Under the pieces are notes generated by a model. It did no database searches and was not told where the DNA came from. It worked only from the letters and a program-made list of their open reading frames with translations. From the sequence record PQ850627.1: DNA of 43,096 bases. The stretch is one strand, 5' to 3'. The position numbers and the translations under genes are program-made. Below are positions 4,418 to 43,000 of the stretch, piece by piece (within the stretch, counting starts at the first letter, position 1; every line of letters starts with the position of its first letter). This DNA comes from Escherichia phage SonjaBuckley_Bas74.

Positions 4418-4878
4418 TGATGGGCTTTTTCAAAGTAACTGACGTACCGTCTCGTCGCGTAGTCCAGTACGCCCGCGTGTCTGGCTCTGGCGAGAACGTG
4501 GTATTTATTGAGGACGAAAGTGTACTCGGTACACCGGTAGATGATATGCCGTTTGCAGATAAAACCGGTATTGCGTTGCCCGCCGCCGGTATGCTTTATG
4601 AAATTCCGTATCTGGCGGACGCTGGCGACGTGTATTTCTCTGCGCAACCGCAGGACGCTGAACTGGCGGGCGGCAGCGCAACCATCACTGTCGAGGTTAA
4701 GGCAGGCAAAGCGCCGTATTCTCTGACCTGGTACAAAGACGGTAAGGAAGTGGTGAATGCGCCTGAGGAGGCTCTGTCTCTGACGGTTAATGCGGTCGGC
4801 GAATACTTCGTTAAAGTTACTGATGCCGATGGAGTAGAGGCGGTAAGCAAAGCGGCGAAGGTTACTAAGCCAGAATGA
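4417..4878 (+). CDS. Ig-like domain protein (putative head decoration/accessory)
   Basis: C-terminal segment TITVEV...APYSLTWYKDGKEV...GEYFVKVTD resembles an Ig-like beta-sandwich; start overlaps preceding stop (TAATG); paralogous to 7879-8223. Confidence 0.45.
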   Translation: MMGFFKVTDVPSRRVVQYARVSGSGENVVFIEDESVLGTPVDDMPFADKTGIALPAAGMLYEIPYLADAGDVYFSAQPQDAELAGGSATITVEVKAGKAPYSLTWYKDGKEVVNAPEEALSLTVNAVGEYFVKVTDADGVEAVSKAAKVTKPE

Positions 4879-4881
4879 TAA

Positions 4882-4908
4882 AAGGCCCCATTATGGGGCC
4901 TTAGTTTT
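4882..4908. terminator. bidirectional intrinsic terminator
   Basis: GGCCCCA-TTA-TGGGGCC hairpin with A-run upstream and T-run downstream, between convergent genes. Confidence 0.65.
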
Positions 4909-5111
4909 CAACGGAATCTTGTGTTTAAATCCTGCTCATGGACAACCCTCAGAACAGTGTCATAATCCCCGTATCTTCCAGGTTCAAATATATCTAATGC
5001 CTTGTAAGCAGACATTGCGTCAGGGAAAACCTGCAGAACCTTTTTAACCCGGCACAAGTCACCGTCGAACTCTTCATCGAACTCTTGAACTACTTCGCAA
5101 ATTGCATACAT
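4908..5111 (-). CDS. hypothetical protein (antisense moron, 67 aa)
   Basis: ATG with strong SD AGGAGGTG 5 nt upstream; own promoter TTGCAC-N17-TACTAT at 5139-5167; terminator hairpin at its 3' end. Confidence 0.55.
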   Translation of the reverse strand: MYAICEVVQEFDEEFDGDLCRVKKVLQVFPDAMSAYKALDIFEPGRYGDYDTVLRVVHEQDLNTRFR

Positions 5112-5138
5112 TTTTCACCTCCTGTTTAAGTTAACTGA

Positions 5139-5167
5139 ATAGTACCCTATTATATTGGGGTGTGCAA
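5139..5167 (-). promoter_or_regulatory. sigma70-type promoter TTGCAC-N17-TACTAT for moron 4908-5111
   Basis: Minus-strand reading TTGCACACCCCAATATAATAGGGTACTAT; 31-bp core identical to copy at 13662-13692. Confidence 0.55.
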
Positions 5168-5218
5168 ACTATTTATTTACGTATTCCAGTTATTCCTCGA
5201 ATTGTAAATGTTGGAATA

Positions 5219-5234
5219 AACTATTCGAATAGTT
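5219..5234. promoter_or_regulatory. perfect 16-bp palindrome AACTATTCGAATAGTT (operator candidate) abutting TTGACT
   Basis: Exact inverted repeat; half-site ACTATTC recurs in several promoters of this genome; overlaps a TTGACT -35-like hexamer at 5233-5238. Confidence 0.45.
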
Positions 5235-5441
5235 GACTTTTCACTAAAAATATGATAAGCTCCACCTGAGCTTGTGAAGTATGAACAAGCGACCGCGGCG
5301 CGGGCAGGTAACGGAGCGGGACGTAAGTCCTGAGTGCAGTTACGCTGACGCGTTCGGAAGGGCCATACTCTATTGCTTGTGTAAAAAGTAACTGGTTTAC
5401 TGAGATTACGCCGTTTCTATGTTTAAATGATAAGGACTAGC

Positions 5442-5468
5442 GCCCCGCTTTATGGCGGGGCTTTACTT
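5442..5468 (+). terminator. terminator-like hairpin upstream of spanin genes
   Basis: GCCCCGC-TTTATG-GCGGGGC followed by TTTACTT. Confidence 0.5.
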
Positions 5469-5485
5469 ATCGAGAAAGGGGAAAC

Positions 5486-5872
5486 ATGAATCTTAAAGCA
5501 ACTGTCGTAGCAGGAGCATGTTTCATCATCCTGGTTTACGCACACGGCATCTACCAGTATCGCAGCGGATGGAACGAAGGCCGGGCTAATCTCGTTTCGC
5601 AGCAACAGCAGAAAGCACAGGCTGAGTTAGCGAAGAAAACACAACGGCAGCAGCAGGATGAATCGAAGGCCGCCGCCGCTGACAACGAAGGCAAGACGAA
5701 ATCAGAGGTGATTACCCGTGAAGTCGTTAAGTACATTAAAACGCCTGGTCGCAGCGTGTGCACTTTTGACCCTGAGCGCGTGCAGCTCAAGTCCCGCGCC
5801 GTCGCCAACGCCAATTCCATCCCCGGATACGACGATGATGCAGCCGCCGTGCAAACTGGCGCAGCCAAGTAG
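5486..5872 (+). CDS. i-spanin (Rz-like)
   Basis: N-terminal TMD ATVVAGACFIILVYAHGIY followed by Q/K/E-rich coiled-coil region; contains an overlapping +1 frame lipoprotein ORF. Confidence 0.65.
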   Translation: MNLKATVVAGACFIILVYAHGIYQYRSGWNEGRANLVSQQQQKAQAELAKKTQRQQQDESKAAAADNEGKTKSEVITREVVKYIKTPGRSVCTFDPERVQLKSRAVANANSIPGYDDDAAAVQTGAAK

Positions 5873-5981
5873 CGACGCTGATGAGGATTTGGCCGTCGAC
5901 GTTCAGAATGCTGAATGCGTACGGCAACTGAGACTGAAAGTGTTCATGTTGCAGGATTACGTGAGGAATATTCTGGAATAG
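5718..5981 (+). CDS. o-spanin (Rz1-like outer membrane lipoprotein)
   Basis: +1 frame relative to the i-spanin, overlapping its 3' half; signal peptide with lipobox LSAC; proline-rich mature part SSSPAPSPTPIPSP. Confidence 0.65.
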   Translation: MKSLSTLKRLVAACALLTLSACSSSPAPSPTPIPSPDTTMMQPPCKLAQPSSDADEDLAVDVQNAECVRQLRLKVFMLQDYVRNILE

Positions 5982-6036
5982 TTGCCTTGCATGTTGGAAT
6001 AATTTATTCTTGACATGTAAATCCGGGTGGCCCGGA
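5965..6036 (+). promoter_or_regulatory. phased GGAATA repeats, TTGACA hexamer and TCCGGG-N3-CCCGGA palindrome upstream of scaffold gene (candidate late promoter / activator site)
   Basis: GGAATA at 5965, 5975 and 5996; 12-mer ATGTTGGAATAA shared with 5208-5219; TTGACA at 6010-6015 without a recognisable -10. Confidence 0.35.
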
Positions 6037-6063
6037 TTCCAACGTCCAGGGGACATACTGACT

Positions 6064-6765
6064 ATGAATCGTTTTTTACGTTATCCGTTCCAGGAAGAAG
6101 CTGGAGCAGAAGATAAAGCTGGTGGCGGTGACGCTCCTAAAATGTTCACCGCTGAAGAAGTTCAGGCGCTGATTGAGAAAGAAGTTGCCGGGCTTAAGGC
6201 TAATCAGGAAGCATTGTTGGCGGAGAAGAAAGAAGCCGCTCGCAAAGCAAAAGAGGCCGAAGAAGAACGGCAGCGCGCGCACCAGGAGGCGTTAAAAGCC
6301 GCTGGTAAGATGGATGAGTTCGAAAAGACGATTCGTAGCCAGTACGACCCTGTGTTAGCCGAGAAAGACGGTCGCATCTCCAGAATGGCAGAGCGTATCC
6401 TCGGCAGCGAACGTAAAGCGGTGCTAGGCTCTTTCGCGGGTGACTTTATTACCCCAGAAGCAGTGGACATTCTTGCGCCGTTCGTTAAGACTGAGTTCGA
6501 AGGCGATGATGTGGTTACTAAGTTTGTTGGTGCAGACGGTAACGTAATCACGACTGACCCGGAACAGTTCCGCAAATACCTGCGCGAACACAAGGCGTTT
6601 TCGCATTTGATCAAAGCAAATGCAGCTTCCGGCGGCGGGGCTTCCGGTAGCAAAGGCGGCGGGGCCGCACCAGCGTTTAAAGACATGAGTGAAGCAGAGC
6701 GTTTAGCCCTGTATAAATCGAACCCTGCCGAATTTGAACGGCAACTTAAAGCCCTGAGGAAATAA
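6064..6765 (+). CDS. scaffold protein (putative)
   Basis: ATG at 6064 with AGGGGA SD (ORF track extends to 6010 without SD); K/E/A-rich coiled-coil-like sequence; directly upstream of major capsid gene. Confidence 0.55.
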   Translation: MNRFLRYPFQEEAGAEDKAGGGDAPKMFTAEEVQALIEKEVAGLKANQEALLAEKKEAARKAKEAEEERQRAHQEALKAAGKMDEFEKTIRSQYDPVLAEKDGRISRMAERILGSERKAVLGSFAGDFITPEAVDILAPFVKTEFEGDDVVTKFVGADGNVITTDPEQFRKYLREHKAFSHLIKANAASGGGASGSKGGGAAPAFKDMSEAERLALYKSNPAEFERQLKALRK

Positions 6766-6767
6766 TA

Positions 6768-7817
6768 ATGGCAATTACCACTATCGGCGATATCGTAACT
6801 GGCAACATCCCGGTCCTGGCGTCTTATATGACCGAGGACCCGGTAGAAAAAACCGCGTTCTTCCAGTCTGGTATTCTGACCCCGACCCCGTACGCTGCCG
6901 AGATTGCCCGCGGCCCGTCCAACGTCGCTAATATTCCTTTCTGGAAAGCGATTGATACCTCTATCGAGCCGAACTACTCGAACGACGTATACCAGGACAT
7001 CGCCACCCCGCGTAACGTGCAGACCGGCGAGATGATGGCGCGCGTTGCGTACCTGAACGAAGGTTTCGGTCAGGCGGATTTGACCGTTGAACTGACCAGC
7101 CAGAACCCGCTGCAATCCGTAGCGTCACGTCTGGATAACTTCTGGCAGCGTCAGGCACAACGCCGTCTGATTGCTACCGCGCTCGGGCTGTACAATGACA
7201 ACGTAGCCGCTACCGACGCATACCACGAGCAGAATGACATGGTAATCGACGTGTCTGCTACTCTGGGCTTCGATGCGGGCGCGTTCATCGACGCTACCCA
7301 GACTATGGGCGATGCTCTGATGGGCAACGGCGGTGAAGTGCTGGGGGCTATCGCGATGCATAGCTTCGTTTATGCGCAGGCACGTAAGCAGCAGCTTATC
7401 GACTTCATCCGTGACGCGGACAACAACACCATGTTCGCCACCTACCAGGGCTACCGCGTGATTGTTGACGACAGCATGACCGTAGTCGGCACTGACCAGA
7501 CCCGTAAGTTCATCTCTATTATCTTCGGTAACGGCGCTATCGGTTACGGTGAAGGTTCTCCGTCCAACCCGCTGGAATACGAGCGCGAAGCGTCTCGCGG
7601 TAATGGTGGTGGCGTTGAAACCCTGTGGACCCGTAAGACCTGGTTGCTGCACCCACTGGGCTACAGCTTCACCAGCGCAGTAATCACCGGCAACGGCACC
7701 GAGACTACCTCGCGCTCTGCTTCCTGGCAGGACCTGGCGAACGCCTCCAACTGGAACCGTGTTGTTGAACGTAAGCACGTACCGATCGCCTTCCTGGTAA
7801 CTGGTGTCAGGTCTTAA
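6768..7817 (+). CDS. major capsid protein
   Basis: 349 aa ORF with GAGGAA SD immediately after scaffold gene and followed by strong intrinsic terminator; size and position typical. Confidence 0.7.
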   Translation: MAITTIGDIVTGNIPVLASYMTEDPVEKTAFFQSGILTPTPYAAEIARGPSNVANIPFWKAIDTSIEPNYSNDVYQDIATPRNVQTGEMMARVAYLNEGFGQADLTVELTSQNPLQSVASRLDNFWQRQAQRRLIATALGLYNDNVAATDAYHEQNDMVIDVSATLGFDAGAFIDATQTMGDALMGNGGEVLGAIAMHSFVYAQARKQQLIDFIRDADNNTMFATYQGYRVIVDDSMTVVGTDQTRKFISIIFGNGAIGYGEGSPSNPLEYEREASRGNGGGVETLWTRKTWLLHPLGYSFTSAVITGNGTETTSRSASWQDLANASNWNRVVERKHVPIAFLVTGVRS

Positions 7818-7832
7818 GGTTAAGCTATAATC

Positions 7833-7858
7833 GAGAGGGACTTCGGTCCCTCTTTTCA
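7833..7858 (+). terminator. intrinsic terminator after major capsid gene
   Basis: GAGGGAC-TTCG-GTCCCTC followed by TTTTCATTT. Confidence 0.65.
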
Positions 7859-8957: not shown

Positions 8958-9572
8958 ATGGCGAAGACTAAATCAGAGATGTTTACTCTTATCGGCGCAA
9001 ACCTCCCCGATAACACTACCGGGCTTATTACCCCAGCAGCGTTGCGCGAGGTAATGACACAGATGGCTGACTCACCTATTTACGCCACTCCAGGTGTTAA
9101 AGAGGTTGAAGTTCTCCGTGCCGCGTCTACGGTAACCCAAGCGCCTACCGCGGTAGATACGGCATTGCAGTTAACTTTCGGTGCAGCTCAGGGTAGTGCA
9201 TCCGACCCGGTAATGATTAATGCTGCGGGGCTGGTTACATTCAACACCGCCGGTAACTACGCCGTTCGCATCAAGTTACAGGCAGGCCGCACAGGTGCCA
9301 GCGGAACGTCTATCCTGTTATCGCGCATTCTTCTTAACGGAGCTCAATACGGCTCACCAGCTGCCACGAAACTGGTAAGCGCCGATGTAACAATCCCGAT
9401 TGAATCCCGCGTCGTTATTAACCCAGCCGCAGGCCAGACGTTTGCCGTTCAGATTATGCGGGATAGCGTCGGAACTAACTTCGGTGGTGTATACCCGCAA
9501 GTAGCTACCGTAACCGCATGGGGTACAGCACCGTCAGCGTTACTGGTTATTTCGGGACTGGAGGCTGCGTAA
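8958..9572 (+). CDS. structural protein, unknown role
   Basis: 204 aa ORF tightly packed after 8443-8955 in structural block. Confidence 0.4.
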   Translation: MAKTKSEMFTLIGANLPDNTTGLITPAALREVMTQMADSPIYATPGVKEVEVLRAASTVTQAPTAVDTALQLTFGAAQGSASDPVMINAAGLVTFNTAGNYAVRIKLQAGRTGASGTSILLSRILLNGAQYGSPAATKLVSADVTIPIESRVVINPAAGQTFAVQIMRDSVGTNFGGVYPQVATVTAWGTAPSALLVISGLEAA

Positions 9573-13633: not shown

Positions 13634-13663
13634 TTTAAACCCCTTCATTGTTGGTGTAAGCGA

Positions 13664-13692
13664 ATAGTACCCTATTATATTGGGGTGTGCAA
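13664..13692 (-). promoter_or_regulatory. sigma70-type promoter TTGCAC-N17-TACTAT for Imm-phosphoesterase moron operon
   Basis: Identical 31-bp sequence to 5137-5167; located 16 nt upstream of ORF start at 13648. Confidence 0.55.
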
Positions 13693-26253: not shown

Positions 26254-26441
26254 TTCGCCACCAGAACTAACTCTTTACGCCCGAACGCCGTAACGTTACC
26301 GGTTACGTCTTCAATAACCAGTTTACCGTTCGACTCGACGAACACCGTATCAACGGCAACAGGACGACGGGTCTTAACGTTGAAAATCATGTCGCCTGGT
26401 ACGATGTCACGTGCTGGTTTGCGGTCATATTCGTGTTTCAT
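26250..26441 (-). CDS. hypothetical protein (63 aa)
   Basis: ATG with AAGGAA SD; preceded by TTGACA-N17-TATAGT promoter; ATGA coupling to methyltransferase. Confidence 0.5.
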   Translation of the reverse strand: MKHEYDRKPARDIVPGDMIFNVKTRRPVAVDTVFVESNGKLVIEDVTGNVTAFGRKELVLVAK

Positions 26442-26757
26442 TTCTAAATTCCTTATATTGTTGGGGTATGTGCTTACTATAATAGTCTGCTATTAGGGTG
26501 TCAATCTGTTTTATCGAACCAACGACAAAAACATTTGCGCCACGTTTACGTATACGCTCGTGTTCCCGTAGCTGGTGCGGGTCTGGCTTAGTGTTTTCGT
26601 CTTTCTTCACCTCGACGAACCAGACGATGCCGCCGGGTAGAATTGCCAGCAGGTCAGGAGCGCCTGAACGTCCTTCGTAGGAAAGTTTACGAACGAGGCC
26701 ACCAATGGCCTCGAATCGCTCTTTTGCGTATTTCTGGATGCGGCCCTCTTTAGTCAT
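26425..26757 (-). CDS. VRR-NUC domain nuclease
   Basis: GAPDLLAIL...VWFVEVKK...HQLREHERIRKRGANVFVV matches the VRR-NUC pattern (PD-(D/E)XK-type core). Confidence 0.6.
   Translation of the reverse strand: MTKEGRIQKYAKERFEAIGGLVRKLSYEGRSGAPDLLAILPGGIVWFVEVKKDENTKPDPHQLREHERIRKRGANVFVVGSIKQIDTLIADYYSKHIPQQYKEFRNETRI
26476..26504 (-). promoter_or_regulatory. promoter TTGACA-N17-TATAGT (internal to 3' end of VRR-NUC gene)
   Basis: Minus-strand reading TTGACACCCTAATAGCAGACTATTATAGT; perfect -35, near-consensus -10, 17-bp spacer. Confidence 0.5.
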
Positions 26758-33077: not shown

Positions 33078-33108
33078 TTGTTTCTCTCCTCTCGTTTGGT
33101 ATGGGCTA

Positions 33109-33137
33109 ACTATAATAGCGAACTATTCACATGTCAA
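33109..33137 (-). promoter_or_regulatory. promoter TTGACA-N17-TATAGT for minus-strand early operon
   Basis: Minus-strand reading TTGACATGTGAATAGTTCGCTATTATAGT; differs at three positions from the 30809-30837 copy. Confidence 0.55.
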
Positions 33138-33176
33138 TGGGCTTTTCTAAAATAATTAATATGGTACTATTCACAT
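33122..33176 (+). promoter_or_regulatory. pair of 11-bp direct repeats ACTATTCACAT spaced 44 bp (operator candidates) with weak plus promoter for HTH gene
   Basis: Exact repeats at 33122-33132 and 33166-33176; second copy overlaps TACTAT -10-like hexamer 32 nt upstream of the regulator ATG. Confidence 0.4.
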
Positions 33177-33201
33177 ATCAACTGACTAAGGAGTAATTGA
33201 C

Positions 33202-33417
33202 ATGCAACCATCTGAACTAGGCATCCGTGTAGAACAACGCCGCAAAGAACTCGGCATCTCCCAGCGCCGTTTGGCGGCCCTGACCGGCGTTTCCCAGGGC
33301 GCGATTAACCAACTGGCACTTGGAGTAACTCAGGACGTCCGCCCGGCAACGCTGTTCAAACTGGCGGAAGTTCTGGAAGTAGACGCCAAGTGGCTGGCGT
33401 TAGGTGAAGGGGCTTAA
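33202..33417 (+). CDS. XRE/Cro-type helix-turn-helix transcriptional regulator
   Basis: 71 aa; LGISQRRLAALTGVSQGAINQL is a classic HTH; AAGGAG SD; lone plus-strand gene convergent with primase, followed by terminator. Confidence 0.7.
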   Translation: MQPSELGIRVEQRRKELGISQRRLAALTGVSQGAINQLALGVTQDVRPATLFKLAEVLEVDAKWLALGEGA

Positions 33418-35851: not shown

Positions 35852-36142
35852 TTACCGTTTAGCCAACCCTTCCAGCAAATTTTTATACTCTTCAAAATAT
35901 TCCTCGACCAAATCATCGCCGAAATAGAAGTCGATATACTCGAGATTATCTCTTACGTTAAGCGATGCCGACATGGTGCTTAGTTGGCGTAAGCTAATTA
36001 GCTTCATTTCTGTTTCTACGCAGAAAGGCCGGTAGGTATCAAGATGGCAAGAGATATTGAAGCATAAAGCGAACTCTCCGGCCACGGAGTGAACCATATA
36101 CACTTCGTTTTCTGCTTTATTGTGGAAAATTACGCCTTTCAT
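35852..36142 (-). CDS. hypothetical protein (96 aa)
   Basis: ATG with AAGGAGA SD; ATGA coupling to upstream HTH gene. Confidence 0.5.
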   Translation of the reverse strand: MKGVIFHNKAENEVYMVHSVAGEFALCFNISCHLDTYRPFCVETEMKLISLRQLSTMSASLNVRDNLEYIDFYFGDDLVEEYFEEYKNLLEGLAKR

Positions 36143-36321
36143 TTCACGTTCTCCTTAATCCATGCTTCGACTTTATTACGGTCAAATGTTCCCGGTAAAC
36201 GGCGGCCCATAACCTTAATACAGCAGTCAGGGAATTTGCCGCTGCGCAACCAGTTATTAATGGTCTGACGTGTCACCCCGATACGCTCGGCTACCTCATT
36301 CTGTGTCATGTAATGTTGCAT
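36139..36321 (-). CDS. AlpA/excisionase-type HTH DNA-binding protein
   Basis: Likely ATG start at 36321 with AGGGGAT SD (ORF track GTG at 36435); MTQNEVAERIGVTRQTINNWLRSGKFP matches the HTH_17 pattern; first gene downstream of TTGCTT-N17-TATACT promoter. Confidence 0.55.
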   Translation of the reverse strand: MQHYMTQNEVAERIGVTRQTINNWLRSGKFPDCCIKVMGRRLPGTFDRNKVEAWIKENVK

Positions 36322-36352
36322 TTTTATATCCCCTGTTTGTTTAGTGAAACCG

Positions 36353-36381
36353 AGTATAGGATAGCGGGAATGTAAAAGCAA
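36353..36381 (-). promoter_or_regulatory. promoter TTGCTT-N17-TATACT for AlpA-like HTH operon
   Basis: Minus-strand reading TTGCTTTTACATTCCCGCTATCCTATACT, about 30 nt upstream of ATG at 36321. Confidence 0.45.
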
Positions 36382-36418
36382 CCAATCCCTGCAATATTTA
36401 ATCTTTACAAAAAAGTTA

Positions 36419-36448
36419 TTGAAAGTTCTTGACACATGTTTGTATAAT
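36419..36448 (+). promoter_or_regulatory. promoter TTGAAA-N18-TATAAT driving a non-coding transcript
   Basis: Consensus -10 TATAAT at 36443-36448; divergent from the minus promoter at 36353-36381. Confidence 0.45.
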
Positions 36449-36740: not shown

Positions 36741-36769
36741 TTGCACACCCCAACATAATAGGATACTAT
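36741..36769 (+). promoter_or_regulatory. sigma70-type promoter TTGCAC-N17-TACTAT for plus-strand small-gene cluster
   Basis: TTGCACACCCCAACATAATAGGATACTAT; 29 of 31 positions identical to the moron promoter repeat. Confidence 0.55.
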
Positions 36770-36803
36770 TCACTTATCGAAACGAGACAGAGGAGTGAAG
36801 GTT

Positions 36804-38179: not shown

Positions 38180-38208
38180 TTGCACACTGTGATAGAATAG
38201 GCTACTAT
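38180..38208 (+). promoter_or_regulatory. sigma70-type promoter TTGCAC-N17-TACTAT
   Basis: TTGCACACTGTGATAGAATAGGCTACTAT followed by leader ACAAACGAGAGGAGAG and ATG at 38240. Confidence 0.5.
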
Positions 38209-38239
38209 TCATTTACACAAACGAGAGGAGAGACAGAAG

Positions 38240-42415: not shown

Positions 42416-42585
42416 TGTTCAGCGACATCAACGCAGCAATCGAAGAAGCAATCTGGCGCCGTTACAACGGCGAGCAACAGCGTCACTTCTGCCTGGTGCA
42501 ACGTGGTAACATGGTCGCCGTGGTGCAGGACCGCGATAACAAATATCCGAATGCGATGTGGACAACGAGGAATTTCTTAGGATGA
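42415..42585 (+). CDS. hypothetical protein (56 aa)
   Basis: Translationally coupled on both sides; uninterrupted frame. Confidence 0.35.
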   Translation: MFSDINAAIEEAIWRRYNGEQQRHFCLVQRGNMVAVVQDRDNKYPNAMWTTRNFLG

Positions 42586-42818
42586 TTACCAGCATTCCTA
42601 ACCTGATTAAAGAATTTGGTACGATGGCGGAGACATGCCGACAAACCGGTATCAACGAAATGACGATTGCTAAGTACAGTAAAGACGTTGATTGTGAGCG
42701 CCACGTAATTTATAACAATCGTCTGATGACGCACGTTAAGACTAGCCCGGTGTTATTCACGCGCCGTGGTATCACTAAAACTGAGCAACGTATTGCTAAA
42801 GAGGAGAGTGGAGAATGA
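42582..42818 (+). CDS. hypothetical protein (78 aa; alternative start 42558)
   Basis: ATGA coupling at 42582; same frame as ORF-track start 42558. Confidence 0.4.
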   Translation: MITSIPNLIKEFGTMAETCRQTGINEMTIAKYSKDVDCERHVIYNNRLMTHVKTSPVLFTRRGITKTEQRIAKEESGE

Positions 42819-43000
42819 AAAAGTTAACTATCTACTGGAAAACAGGGGCTACGTCAGAACTCGATGTTTTCAGCGTAACGCAGTGTGAAAAGTTCTGGTA
42901 TGCCGAAACATTCAACGGTGAAGTGAGAATACCAATCGCACTGGTATACGGCGGCGATATAACAGAATACCAATCGCACTGGTATACGGCGGCGATATAA
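42815..43000 (+). CDS. hypothetical protein whose 3' end runs through a 38-bp tandem duplication
   Basis: ATGA coupling; stop codon lies in the second repeat copy; followed by intrinsic terminator. Confidence 0.4.
   Translation: MKKLTIYWKTGATSELDVFSVTQCEKFWYAETFNGEVRIPIALVYGGDITEYQSHWYTAAI

Follow-up and report, generated by a model that had tools for sequence, protein, structure and literature searches.

A probable host-type promoter with a hairpin-capped leader and a conserved GGAATA cassette ahead of the scaffold and capsid genes of a Kagunavirus phage

On balance, the DNA ahead of the scaffold and major capsid genes of Escherichia phage SonjaBuckley_Bas74 is read here as an ordinary host-type promoter (P2), followed by a hairpin-capped leader and carrying a GGAATA cassette as a probable operator. 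This reading is considered somewhat probable from comparison of related sequences. The window, the whole stretch of 43,096 nucleotides that was analysed (PQ850627.1), is the genome of a Kagunavirus (Guernseyvirinae) siphophage; Escherichia phages vB-Eco-KMB35 and Bas71 are 99.6-99.9% identical to it. A first-pass annotation had placed a promoter region ahead of the scaffold and capsid genes, and the conservation described below supports that placement. The promoter elements had been assigned differently, and their assignment is revised here.

Results

The promoter-leader module

The following features frame the region.

5718-5981, + strand: o-spanin open reading frame, ending AGG AAT ATT CTG GAA TAG
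6064-6765, + strand: scaffold gene, predicted to be served by P2
6768-7817, + strand: major capsid gene, predicted to be served by P2
7833-7854, + strand: intrinsic terminator at the end of the scaffold-capsid unit, made up of a 9-bp stem and a TTTCATTT tail

The region is present in about 490 deposited genomes. Comparisons were carried out on 61 distinct upstream sequences drawn from Kagunavirus, Jerseyvirus, Cornellvirus and more distant metagenomic lineages. The promoter-leader is 99% identical up to the ATG ahead of diverged scaffold and capsid alleles, and positions 5975-6063 most likely constitute a self-contained promoter-leader module for the two genes. A TTG-initiated N-terminal extension of the scaffold open reading frame (from 6010) was rejected; its frame is not kept in Jerseyvirus because the leader there is 1 nt longer.

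The core elements of P2 are as follows.

5982-5987, + strand: predicted -35 element TTGCCT, 17 bp 5' of the -10
5989-5995, + strand: hypervariable upstream half of the spacer
6005-6010, + strand: predicted -10 element TATTCT, 17 bp after TTGCCT (TATATT in distant lineages)
6010-6015, + strand: orphan -35-like hexamer TTGACA, at about -7 to -2 and sharing its first base with the -10
6017 (6016-6019), + strand: predicted transcription start, 7 nt past the -10

TTGCCT-17-TATTCT matches the consensus at 8 of 12 positions, and its spacing falls within the 16-18 bp of a sigma-70 hexamer pair; its -10 has the A at position 2 and the T at position 6 that mark such promoters. The promoter scan was run at a threshold of 9/12, and the site is absent from its list because an 8/12 match lies below that value. 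The P2 hexamer score alone is indistinguishable from chance, and the case for a promoter depends on conservation. In nearly all of the 61 sequences the hexamers form the best or second-best sigma-70-like pair within the 95 nt upstream, and their position is kept even where the scaffold protein is only 56-70% identical. The -35 occurs as TTGCCT, TTGCAT, TTGCAA or TTGTTA in nearly all of these sequences. The distance from the end of the -10 to the loop of the first leader hairpin is 17-19 nt in nearly all lineages (13 nt in L105/L106). Between the hexamers, positions 5989-5995 read GCATGTT, AGTAAGT, CTCCTGT, ATCGTTT or TCATACT according to lineage, with a column variability of 0.4-0.6 between invariant flanks. 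None of the sigma-E, sigma-54 and sigma-28 consensus spacings, compared by eye with GGAATA and TTGC, fits the site.

We infer from the sequence that P2 is active and where it starts: host sigma-70 RNA polymerase would use TTGCCT, the 17-bp spacer and TATTCT, and initiate near 6017. The scaffold-capsid transcription unit would stop at the terminator at 7833-7854. Transcript 5'-end mapping for Guernseyvirinae was not found in the literature searched; the K1B4 transcriptome paper (PMC12645636) gives coarse time classes only, without 5' ends.

The TTGACA hexamer

TTGACA was confirmed at 6010-6015 by direct reading. It had been taken as the -35 of an activator-dependent late promoter without a -10, the phased GGAATA copies being the activator sites. 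The hexamer is a perfect match to the -35 consensus with repeats upstream, and it is kept in Kagunavirus, Cornellvirus and the Pantoea-phage-like lineage. However, it is TTGTTA in all Jerseyvirus and absent from the L053, L056 and L105 lineages, where the module is otherwise retained. A -10 was sought 16-18 bp 3' of TTGACA and none was found (candidates CCGGAT, CGGATT and GGATTC); TTGCCT-17-TATTCT, however, is conserved just upstream. The would-be -10 would lie inside an RNA-covarying hairpin, in its 3' arm, and a start about 30 nt further 3' would leave this conserved hairpin outside the transcript. An activator-dependent class would be recognised by a core lacking a recognisable -10 or -35, and here both hexamers are conserved. 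We consider a -35 role for TTGACA very improbable. The broader suggestion of a general late-promoter class does not hold either: GGAATA clusters at two promoters only in the genome, with no cluster ahead of the terminase, tail or holin genes of the window genome.

A pausing role of the lambda pR' type is extremely improbable for the same hexamer. TTGACA and, after a gap of 1 bp, GTAAAT (+1 to +6) would hold sigma-70 in a pause close to the promoter, and a Q-like protein would load at the GGAATAA of the spacer; as an antiterminator, it would take polymerase past the terminator at 7833-7854. A terminator does follow the capsid gene, and the window geometry matches that of lambda pR', where a -35-like TTGACT shares the final T of the -10 and is followed, after 1 bp, by the pause element AACGAT, with the Q site in the spacer. 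The -10-like element varies, though, being AGAAAC in Jerseyvirus and GTAAAG in Cornellvirus; GTAAAT occurs in Kagunavirus only. Three Pfam scans covering about 30 open reading frames of the window found no Q-family or other Q-type antiterminator protein.

Leader hairpins

Two hairpins are predicted in the leader of the P2 transcript.

6020-6038, + strand: leader hairpin 1, 8-bp stem AAUCCGGG/CCCGGAUU with loop UGG
6044-6054, + strand: leader hairpin 2, GUCC-AGG-GGAC, carrying the Shine-Dalgarno G-run

The palindrome TCCGGG-TGG-CCCGGA is present at 6022-6036 as first described, and extends to an 8-bp stem, AATCCGGG/CCCGGATT, at 6020-6038. It had been listed among the promoter elements, a role that is not upheld, as it covaries as an RNA hairpin within the transcript. 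From its covariation and position, we read it as a 5'-terminal leader stem-loop. Hairpin 1 begins about 3 nt from the predicted 5' end, with an overhang of about 2-4 nt across lineages. In the alignment 92.5% of cells are paired and five of the eight pairs have changed on both sides; these values were reached in 0 of 500 shuffles, a statistic that overstates independence because the compared sequences are kin. Controls slid along the alignment were at most 50% paired. The outer stem is conserved in pairing, and the inner stem (CCGGG/CCCGG) and loop (N-G-G) in sequence. Folding of the leader gave a minimum free energy no better than that of shuffles (z = -0.27). A covarying hairpin is found close to the 5' end, the position of that end being predicted.

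It is quite improbable that the palindrome acts instead as DNA, in the form of a repressor operator past the start, or as a terminator of the spanin transcript. The perfect 8-bp inverted repeat at +4 to +22 does occupy a classic repressor position, and Kagunavirus lacks the spanin terminator known from other genera. Nevertheless, compensatory substitutions and U-G wobbles account for the changes in the outer stem pairs. The wobbles pair on the + strand only and count against a DNA dyad, because they are A-C mismatches on the other strand. Nor does a U-run follow the G+C-rich stem, as it would in a terminator: the stem continues into TCCAACGTCC, and the scan did not call the site terminator-like.

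As a leader stem-loop, hairpin 1 may protect abundant scaffold/capsid mRNA from 5'-end-dependent decay, or may serve as a translational or autoregulatory handle. Hairpin 2 would present the Shine-Dalgarno sequence. Compensatory variants of hairpin 2 are GACC/GGUC in the L053 group and UGCC/GGCA in L105/L106. A search of Rfam 15 with 4800-6300 on either strand (E up to 1) gave no match, and nothing near the gathering score was found in the matching regions of Cornellvirus SP-031 and Pantoea phage AH01. The invariant GG of the loop and the conserved inner stem of hairpin 1 leave room for an RNA-reading protein.

The GGAATA cassette at two promoters

GGAATA does occur at 5965-5970, 5975-5980 and 5996-6001, with the reported spacings of 10 and 21 bp. 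The elements of the P2 cassette are as follows.

5965-5970, + strand: GGAATA copy 1, at about -50, within the o-spanin codons Arg-Asn-Ile
5975-5981, + strand: GGAATAG copy 2, abutting the -35 and also forming the GAA codon and TAG stop of the o-spanin gene
5996-6009, no strand assigned: element V, a GGAATA-ATT-TATTC palindrome formed by copy 3 and an inverted half-site that is the -10, centred at about -14

In this arrangement two direct copies stand just 5' of the -35, and the palindrome extends across the second half of the spacer into the -10. The possibility that the repeats are coding sequence and nothing else is borne out for copy 1, which consists of codons, but not for copies 2 and 3, which are conserved in non-coding DNA elsewhere. 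Copy 1 occurs in Kagunavirus and Jerseyvirus only; the last six o-spanin codons are nucleotide-identical between these genera, whereas neighbouring codons differ. Where the o-spanin gene lies apart from the promoter, it ends ...NVTE* without GGAATA. In Cornellvirus-type loci BLAST homology to the window starts at 5975, and ATAGGAATAGTTGCCTT is kept in non-coding DNA. The columns of copy 2 are invariant across 25 distinct sequences, and copy 2 is, by this comparison, an ancestral part of the promoter module. Kagunavirus, Jerseyvirus, Cornellvirus and phiEap-2-like phages all have element V at P2 unchanged, and it is missing from the Pantoea-phage-like and more distant lineages.

A second promoter (P1) with the same motif lies upstream of the spanins.

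5182-5196, - strand: element U', two TATTCC half-sites 9 bp apart, at about -84 and -75 from the predicted P1 start
5213-5232, no strand assigned: element V of P1, GGAATA-AAC-TATTC plus GAATAG, lying partly in AACTATTCGAATAGTT
5219-5234: AACTATTCGAATAGTT, a 16-bp palindrome
5233-5261, + strand: promoter P1, TTGACT, 17 bp and an extended -10, TG-a-TAAGCT, with a predicted start at about 5268

In phage fBC-Eco01, an in silico prediction lists the sequence of P1 as host promoter HP1 (PMC9825357, supplement). The likeness to 5208-5238 claimed in the first-pass annotation is real in its parts: ATGTTGGAATAA and TTGACT (5233-5238) are present and GGAATA is shared. The geometry differs, however. At P1 an extended -10 goes with TTGAC, here a genuine -35, and the cassette lies at about -38 to -86, whereas the P2 cassette spans about -9 to -52. 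The internal spacing of both cassettes is the same, about 30 bp, and segments of 19 nt and 13 nt are common to P1 and P2 in permuted order.

In the non-coding DNA at P1, column variability is 0.024 for the half-sites against 0.226 for the remaining columns (Mann-Whitney p = 3e-9). For the promoter hexamers it is 0.048, and the half-sites are no less conserved than these. The columns of element U' have a variability of about 0.02 over 57 distinct sequences from three genera. The centre of element V of P1 varies (AAC, CTT, AAT) and its half-sites are conserved.

Word counts were less telling. GGAATA was counted 26 times where 17.5 +/- 4.2 were expected; a count of 26 was reached in 5 of 100 shuffles, and enrichment is not clear. 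The 12-mer ATGTTGGAATAA is exact at 5208 and 5991; as evidence this repeat was discarded, being at chance level (4 occurrences with at most two mismatches against 3.4 expected). Clustering gave a different picture. The 43 kb hold 108 GAATA/TATTC pentamers, and five per 50 bp are reached at two places only, 5966-6015 and 5182-5231, the next window having two. In 200 Markov shuffles the maximum was four and never five; clustering of this kind does not arise by chance. Bas71, Jerseyvirus AG11 and Cornellvirus SP-031 also have their densest clusters at these two sites, and Pantoea phage AH01 has none. GGAATA is thus non-random, conserved and common to both promoters, as would fit a common regulator.

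Losses and gains of the cassette were also followed. The L048/L055/AH01 lineage has no GGAATA at either promoter and retains TTGCAT-17-TATTCT and the hairpin; in one lineage the motif is present at P2 and absent at P1. The phiEap-2-like phages have a full palindrome 5' of the -35 and a third cassette copy, with copies in either orientation. A stop codon and a terminator flank this third copy, which has no adjoining promoter. A BLAST search with both cassettes against 5,426 complete E. coli genomes gave no match. RNA hairpins between TATTCC and GGAATA were considered and found unconvincing, as three disruptions stand against one compensatory pair (L016) and one wobble.

A cassette without function, GGAATA being a by-product of o-spanin codons, of the TATTC of the -10 and of an old duplication of P1 and P2, appears improbable. 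It would account for a copy 1 that is coding and missing from all loci whose spanin gene lies away from the promoter, for a right palindrome half that is the -10 itself, for the weak enrichment at the word level, and for the permuted shared segments, which are expected after duplication. It does not agree with non-coding half-sites at P1 that are about ten times less variable than their neighbours in three genera, with an invariant spacer half containing GGAATAA beside a hypervariable half, with joint loss at both promoters in one lineage, or with extra copies in either orientation in phiEap-2-like phages.

The cassette is operator-like and probably binds a regulator. One sequence-specific DNA-binding protein, of phage or host, may co-regulate P1 and P2 through it. 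Occupancy of the cassette at P2 would be likelier to hinder RNA polymerase, because the palindrome overlaps the -10.

The opposite effect, in which the P2 core is unchanged and the cassette binds an activator that recruits RNA polymerase to a weak promoter late in infection and P2 would be activator-dependent after all, is possible though unlikely. The core hexamers are weak (8/12). The two direct copies, at about -50 and -40, stand next to the -35, where activators typically bind; the whole P1 cassette is upstream of its -35, and the full palindrome of phiEap-2-like phages is just upstream of theirs. On the other hand, a protein on the P2 palindrome would sit over the -10 and the spacer, and proteins bound there usually compete with polymerase. 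With its near-consensus -35 and extended -10, P1 should need no activation, and the lineage without GGAATA has an equally weak core, TTGCAT-17-TATTCT. The Pfam scans of about 30 open reading frames yielded three HTH proteins, none of which can be linked to the motif, and no activator gene.

Candidate binders

The HTH proteins identified with Pfam are encoded as follows.

33202-33417: XRE protein
36142-36435: HTH_17 protein
42558-42818: NinH-like protein

The early-promoter element that is probably read by the Cro-like XRE protein differs between genera.

The NinH-like gene is found together with the motif in Kagunavirus, Jerseyvirus, Cornellvirus and phiEap-2-like phages, and it is missing from the motif-less lineages compared. 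In L237 a NinH-like gene is present and a cassette is lacking within 10 kb; L155 and L218 combine the gene with a motif-free P1. The phyletic pattern weakly favours the NinH-like protein as a candidate binder, with this counter-example. A Fis/NinH site is a 15-bp pseudo-palindrome with G and C 13 nt apart (PMC7166090). Where G-N13-C was expected, the conserved geometry found in the cassette was G-N11-C, and the outer positions vary (C, A, G, T). The Cro-like XRE protein is disfavoured as binder, being only 43-49% identical between genera while the cassette is invariant. There are partial matches of the motif to the RcsAB box and the Lrp consensus.

It is doubtful whether a dedicated regulator, be it the NinH-like Fis-mimicking HTH protein or a conserved enterobacterial factor, uses the cassette as its operator. 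If true, a small regulon comprising the spanin promoter, the scaffold/capsid promoter and, in some phages, a third site would time morphogenesis. With the NinH-like protein as binder, it would be the first physiological target of the NinH family.

Discussion

The GGAATA motif appears to be undescribed; the kind of element is ordinary and unsurprising. The value of the analysis lies in the corrected promoter assignment and in the definition of a strongly conserved motif. Kagunavirus, Jerseyvirus and Cornellvirus belong to the Guernseyvirinae, a subfamily of about 500 sequenced phages that are among those most often isolated on E. coli and Salmonella, some of them characterised as therapy candidates. 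The resulting map comprises a P2 promoter-leader module, a second promoter 5' of the spanins, and a shared cis-element that possibly times both. The P2 module, about 90 bp long, recombines as a unit and is a candidate expression part.

P2 resembles the sigma-70 promoters of virulent and temperate coliphages that depend on host RNA polymerase in its TTGACA/TATAAT-like hexamers and 17-bp spacer, and sigma-70 units of these phages in having its own promoter and terminator around highly expressed scaffold/capsid genes. Unlike a plain sigma-70 promoter, it has 8/12 matches and a spacer of which part is conserved far beyond need.

Stem-loops of the ompA type at the 5' terminus reportedly stabilise mRNA. 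Hairpin 1 is like these leaders, a stable hairpin a few nt from the predicted 5' end of an abundant mRNA, and a stabilising role is suggested by analogy. Unlike a pure stabiliser, its loop and inner stem are conserved in sequence, which hints at protein recognition, for example in scaffold autoregulation. Scaffold autoregulation occurs in phage P22.

Two features of the window are shared with lambda pR'/Q: the -35-like hexamer runs into the final base of the -10, and +1 to +6 contain a -10-like element. Unlike in lambda, the -10-like element is not kept in relatives, and no terminator lies directly past the start.

The sites of phi29 p4 repress one promoter and activate another. The GGAATA motif differs from these sites in sequence; as in the p4 operators, a short motif is used in direct and inverted copies at differing positions of two promoters.

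The E. coli NanR operator, (GGTATA)3, requires at least two correctly spaced repeats for binding (PMC8012715). NanR operator identity was rejected, the hexamers here being GGAATA throughout; the likeness is a resemblance only, because the third base is A and not T in every copy, and the motif is equally conserved in Salmonella phages. The resemblance consists in tandem hexamers with a period of 8-10 bp, and at P1 GGAATAACTGGAATA is similar to GGTATAACAGGTATA.

A conserved hexamer pair upstream of the scaffold gene

The window is a complete genome of the Kagunavirus type, with 99.6-99.9% identity to Escherichia phages Bas71 and vB-Eco-KMB35. The GGAATA region lies in the following setting:

5486-5872, i-spanin gene, upstream of the GGAATA region
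5718-5981, o-spanin gene, overlapping the i-spanin gene, upstream of the GGAATA region
6064, ATG of the scaffold gene, which the major capsid gene follows
6768-7817, major capsid gene, 3' of the scaffold gene
7833-7854, good intrinsic terminator, closing the scaffold and capsid pair

About 170 related loci (viral and metagenomic contigs) and three complete GenBank genomes were compared. Their upstream sequences fall into the lineages listed below; scaffold identity goes down to 56% in the three distant metagenomic groups. In every lineage, two hexamers 17 bp apart were found at the equivalent place.

Core hexamers of the predicted scaffold promoter (5982-6010 in the window)
TTGCCT-17-TATTCT: Kagunavirus, Jerseyvirus, Cornellvirus
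TTGCAA-17-TATTCT: phiEap-2-like group
TTGCAT-17-TATTCT: Pantoea-phage-like group
TTGTTA-17-TATATT, TTGCAT-17-TATATT or TTGCCT-17-TAACAT: distant metagenomic groups

TTGCCT-17-TATTCT agrees with the consensus in only 8 of 12 positions, and the promoter scan does not list it; the case for a core promoter comes from conservation, not score. When the 95 nt upstream of the leader hairpin were scanned in 61 distinct sequences, the pair ranked best or second-best almost everywhere, and 17-19 nt separated the -10 end from the hairpin loop (13 nt in the related loci L105 and L106). Within the spacer, hypervariability between lineages is confined to the seven bases that follow TTGCCTT (column variability 0.4-0.6); the flanks of this stretch are invariant. 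The first-pass annotation had taken TTGACA (6010-6015) for the -35 of a promoter without a recognisable -10. Neither part held, as a -10 (TATTCT in the window) is conserved in position across lineages and TTGACA shares its last base, is replaced by TTGTTA in every Jerseyvirus sequence and is missing in three lineages. TTGACA is thus an orphan hexamer at about -7 to -2. In P AB-2017-type phages, promoter and leader are 99% identical up to the ATG and the scaffold and capsid alleles thereafter are diverged, so promoter and leader behave as a separable module.

The best sigma-70-like match of the region, GTGTCA-16-TATAAT (7804-7831, 10/12), spans the capsid gene end (stop codon 7815-7817) directly 5' of the terminator hairpin. 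It is probably a chance match; it could also serve transcription restart for the downstream head-tail genes.

GGAATA half-sites cluster at two predicted promoters

Direct reading confirmed GGAATA at 5965, 5975 and 5996 (copies 1, 2 and 3), as well as TTGACA and the dyad at 6022-6036. The word occurs 26 times in the window against 17.5 expected (5 of 100 shuffles reach 26), and the 12-mer ATGTTGGAATAA, with exact copies at 5208 and 5991, is at chance once mismatches are allowed. There are 108 GAATA/TATTC pentamers, and only at 5966-6015 and 5182-5231 do five of them share a 50-bp interval; no other such interval has more than two, and none of 200 shuffles reached five. The motif is not spread across late genes generally, contrary to what an activator-dependent late promoter class would lead one to expect.

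Copies 1 and 2 form the last o-spanin codons and stop (AGG AAT ATT CTG GAA TAG). In Cornellvirus and all more distant lineages, o-spanin ends in ...NVTE* without any GGAATA, a variable gene on the minus strand, which has its own promoter and a bidirectional terminator, separates it from the scaffold promoter, and homology to the window begins exactly at 5975. Only in Kagunavirus and Jerseyvirus, therefore, does the spanin C-terminus contain copy 1. The objection that the repeats are merely coding applies to this copy; copy 2 (GGAATAG, directly next to the -35) and copy 3 are both conserved in other genera where the DNA is truly non-coding. In the palindrome GGAATA-ATT-TATTC, copy 3 forms the left half and the -10 the right half. 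The six last o-spanin codons are nucleotide-identical between Kagunavirus and Jerseyvirus and neighbouring codons differ, which is only suggestive of an extra constraint.

In other genera, the gaps between Hoc and the spanin promoter (P1) and between o-spanin and the scaffold promoter are hot spots of variable minus-strand genes. Where these are absent, upstream ORFs enter the half-site cluster (the cassette) and stop within a half-site (GAA TAG or GAA TAA), so that part of the regulatory element doubles as a gene's last codon and stop. The places concerned are:

5975-5981, window
~26306-26664, related locus L111
11499-11540 and 12630-12650, related locus L224
15605-15650, related locus L218

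The spanin promoter had been said to show a similar arrangement. The same parts are indeed present at 5182-5232 (two TATTCC half-sites 9 bp apart, a GGAATA-AAC-TATTC palindrome and GAATAG abutting the -35), with about 30 bp from direct-repeat pair to palindrome at both promoters, but measured from the core elements the whole cassette lies about 34 bp further upstream here (~-38 to -86, against ~-9 to -52 at the scaffold promoter). The P1 core (5233-5261, TTGACT-17-TGaTAAGCT, extended -10) is conserved as T(T/A/G)GACT-17-TGnTA(A/C)(G/C)CT in three genera and was predicted in silico as host promoter HP1 of phage fBC-Eco01 (PMC9825357). Neither that paper nor the AG11 GenBank record has a predicted promoter at the scaffold site. 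In 57 distinct non-coding P1 sequences, mean column variability was 0.024 for half-sites, 0.048 for promoter hexamers and 0.226 for other columns (half-site vs other columns, Mann-Whitney p = 3e-9); the palindrome centre varies (AAC, CTT, AAT). In one Kagunavirus variant (L016), a single case, two P1 half-sites are altered alike (TTATTCC to TTATTCT, GGAATAA to AGAATAA), either as a compensatory pair of an RNA or DNA hairpin or as a parallel change of two protein sites.

These two sites likewise hold the top pentamer clusters of Bas71, Jerseyvirus AG11 and Cornellvirus SP-031. No cluster is present in Pantoea phage AH01, and Pantoea-phage-like and more distant lineages keep hexamers and hairpin with no GGAATA at either promoter. 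In some genomes the motif is at the scaffold promoter and the spanin promoter is motif-free. The phiEap-2-like phages have an additional full palindrome just upstream of the -35, besides the spacer palindrome, and a third cassette between stop codon and terminator without an adjoining promoter. A BLAST search of 5,426 E. coli genomes gave no match to either cassette. A perfect copy of the palindrome, GAATAA-A-TTATTC, within coding sequence, at the Cornellvirus o-spanin start ATGAATAAATTATTCCTG (M-N-K-L-F-L; L111 26067-26084, L155 ~9119-9140), is probably a coincidence.

These arrangements make it somewhat more likely that the cassette represses than that it activates: the palindrome extends over the -10 of the scaffold promoter, and Cornellvirus has extra half-sites within the spanin-promoter spacer. 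Activation by the cassette binder, against which both features count, is nevertheless a live alternative, favoured by the weak core hexamers and by two GGAATA copies abutting the -35.

Leader hairpins

The dyad TCCGGG-TGG-CCCGGA extends to an 8-bp stem, AATCCGGG/CCCGGATT (6020-6038), and a transcript predicted to start near 6017 would begin with GUA followed by this stem. In an ungapped alignment of 25 distinct versions, 92.5% of cells were paired and 5 of 8 pairs had changes on both sides. None of 500 shuffles reached these values, and pairing was ≤50% when the 3' arm was slid as a control. Outer-stem changes include AU/AU, CA/UG and AG/CU; whole-stem replacements include GACGGG/CCCGUC and AAGCGGU/GCCGCUU. 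Several versions contain U-G wobbles. On the opposite strand, or if the dyad acted as DNA, these would be A-C mismatches, so the constraint acts on the plus-sense RNA. No T-run follows the stem, which was not called terminator-like in the scan. With an N-G-G loop in all versions and a nearly invariant inner stem, the RNA could be read by a protein. A second hairpin of 4 bp (6044-6054, GUCC-AGG-GGAC) bears the Shine-Dalgarno G-run and has compensatory versions (GACC/GGUC, UGCC/GGCA). The folding energy of the leader was no better than that of shuffles, and Rfam gave no match for it.

In a distant relative (L237, 10930-10995), a promoter-like TTGCTT...TATACT upstream of the small terminase gene is followed at once by a hairpin CGGGGG-TGG-CCCCCG. 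This G+C stem with an NGG triloop right after a promoter repeats the design of the first leader hairpin, a design that may be more widely used in these phages.

Between P1 and the i-spanin start (5262-5485) lies a G+C-rich leader of ~200 nt (~290 nt in Cornellvirus and the Pantoea-phage-like lineage), conserved across genera and ending in a hairpin with a weak U-tail (5442-5461). Both-sided changes occur in 9 of 36 predicted pairs; Rfam gave no match. GenBank places short hypothetical ORFs here (Bas71_0007, AG11_07), and a 36-codon ORF (5281-5391) is without ATG in Jerseyvirus. A structured regulatory RNA or an attenuator preceding the spanin genes is one possible reading of this segment.

Candidate binders

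Pfam detected no Q-type antiterminator among the window ORFs scanned. The candidates were:

33202-33417, plus strand, XRE/Cro-like HTH protein (Pfam)
36142-36435, HTH_17 protein (Pfam)
42558-42818, NinH-like HTH protein of the Fis-mimic family (below the Pfam gathering score, E = 6e-5)

The XRE protein has only 43-49% identity between genera and its probable target, a 32-nt early-promoter element, also differs between genera; as the cassette is invariant, its binder should be more conserved than this. The NinH-like protein (55-67% identity among aligned homologues) has a sequence pattern that is clearly of the NinH type, and RefSeq assigns its homologues to the NinH family. Its ORF is one of only three window ORFs that occur in AG11 and SP-031 yet are absent from AH01; in motif-free loci, no homologue turned up within 10 kb on the upstream side of the scaffold gene, and gene and cassette occur together in most lineages, not all. 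Against NinH, L237 has the gene with no cassette within 10 kb, and the conserved G and C of the GGAATA palindrome are 11 nt apart, not 13 as in lambda NinH and Fis sites (PMC7166090). A host factor fits the same phyletic pattern, since motif-bearing phages infect Escherichia, Salmonella and Enterobacter. The NinH-like gene lies upstream of the small terminase gene, with one short ORF between (42815-43000).

The ~32-nt element TGAATAGTACCCTATTATATtggggtgtgcaa has six copies against 0 expected: 5136-5167 (+), 13661-13692 (+), 33110-33129 (-), 33154-33173 (-), 36753-36784 (-) and 38192-38223 (-). Its opposite strand reads TTGCAC-17-TACTAT, 20-30 nt upstream of small-gene RBSs. It was listed among 'phage RNA polymerase promoters' of fBC-Eco01 (PMC9825357); no phage RNA polymerase is annotated in these genomes, and the copies have the look of early promoters or operators of host type that form one family. 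Two copies and a near-consensus TTGACA-17-TATAGT promoter lie in a divergent control region (33078-33201) between the XRE/Cro-like gene and minus-strand replication genes, a layout like that of a small genetic switch; the phage is regarded as virulent.

Proposed mechanism and comparison with known systems

From sequence comparison, sigma-70 RNA polymerase would start near position 6017. How stable the scaffold-capsid mRNA is and how well it is translated would be influenced by the 5' hairpin and by the one with the Shine-Dalgarno sequence, and the unit would end at the terminator. One protein recognising GGAATA half-sites would occupy both promoters. The literature searched contained no description of the GGAATA motif, its restriction to two (sometimes three) sites or the covarying leader hairpins. 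The tandem hexamers resemble the (GGTATA)3 operator of NanR, although the third base differs in every copy (PMC8012715). The whole combines a probable promoter of host type, a repeat cassette resembling an operator, and a structured leader; each of the three is a known kind of element.
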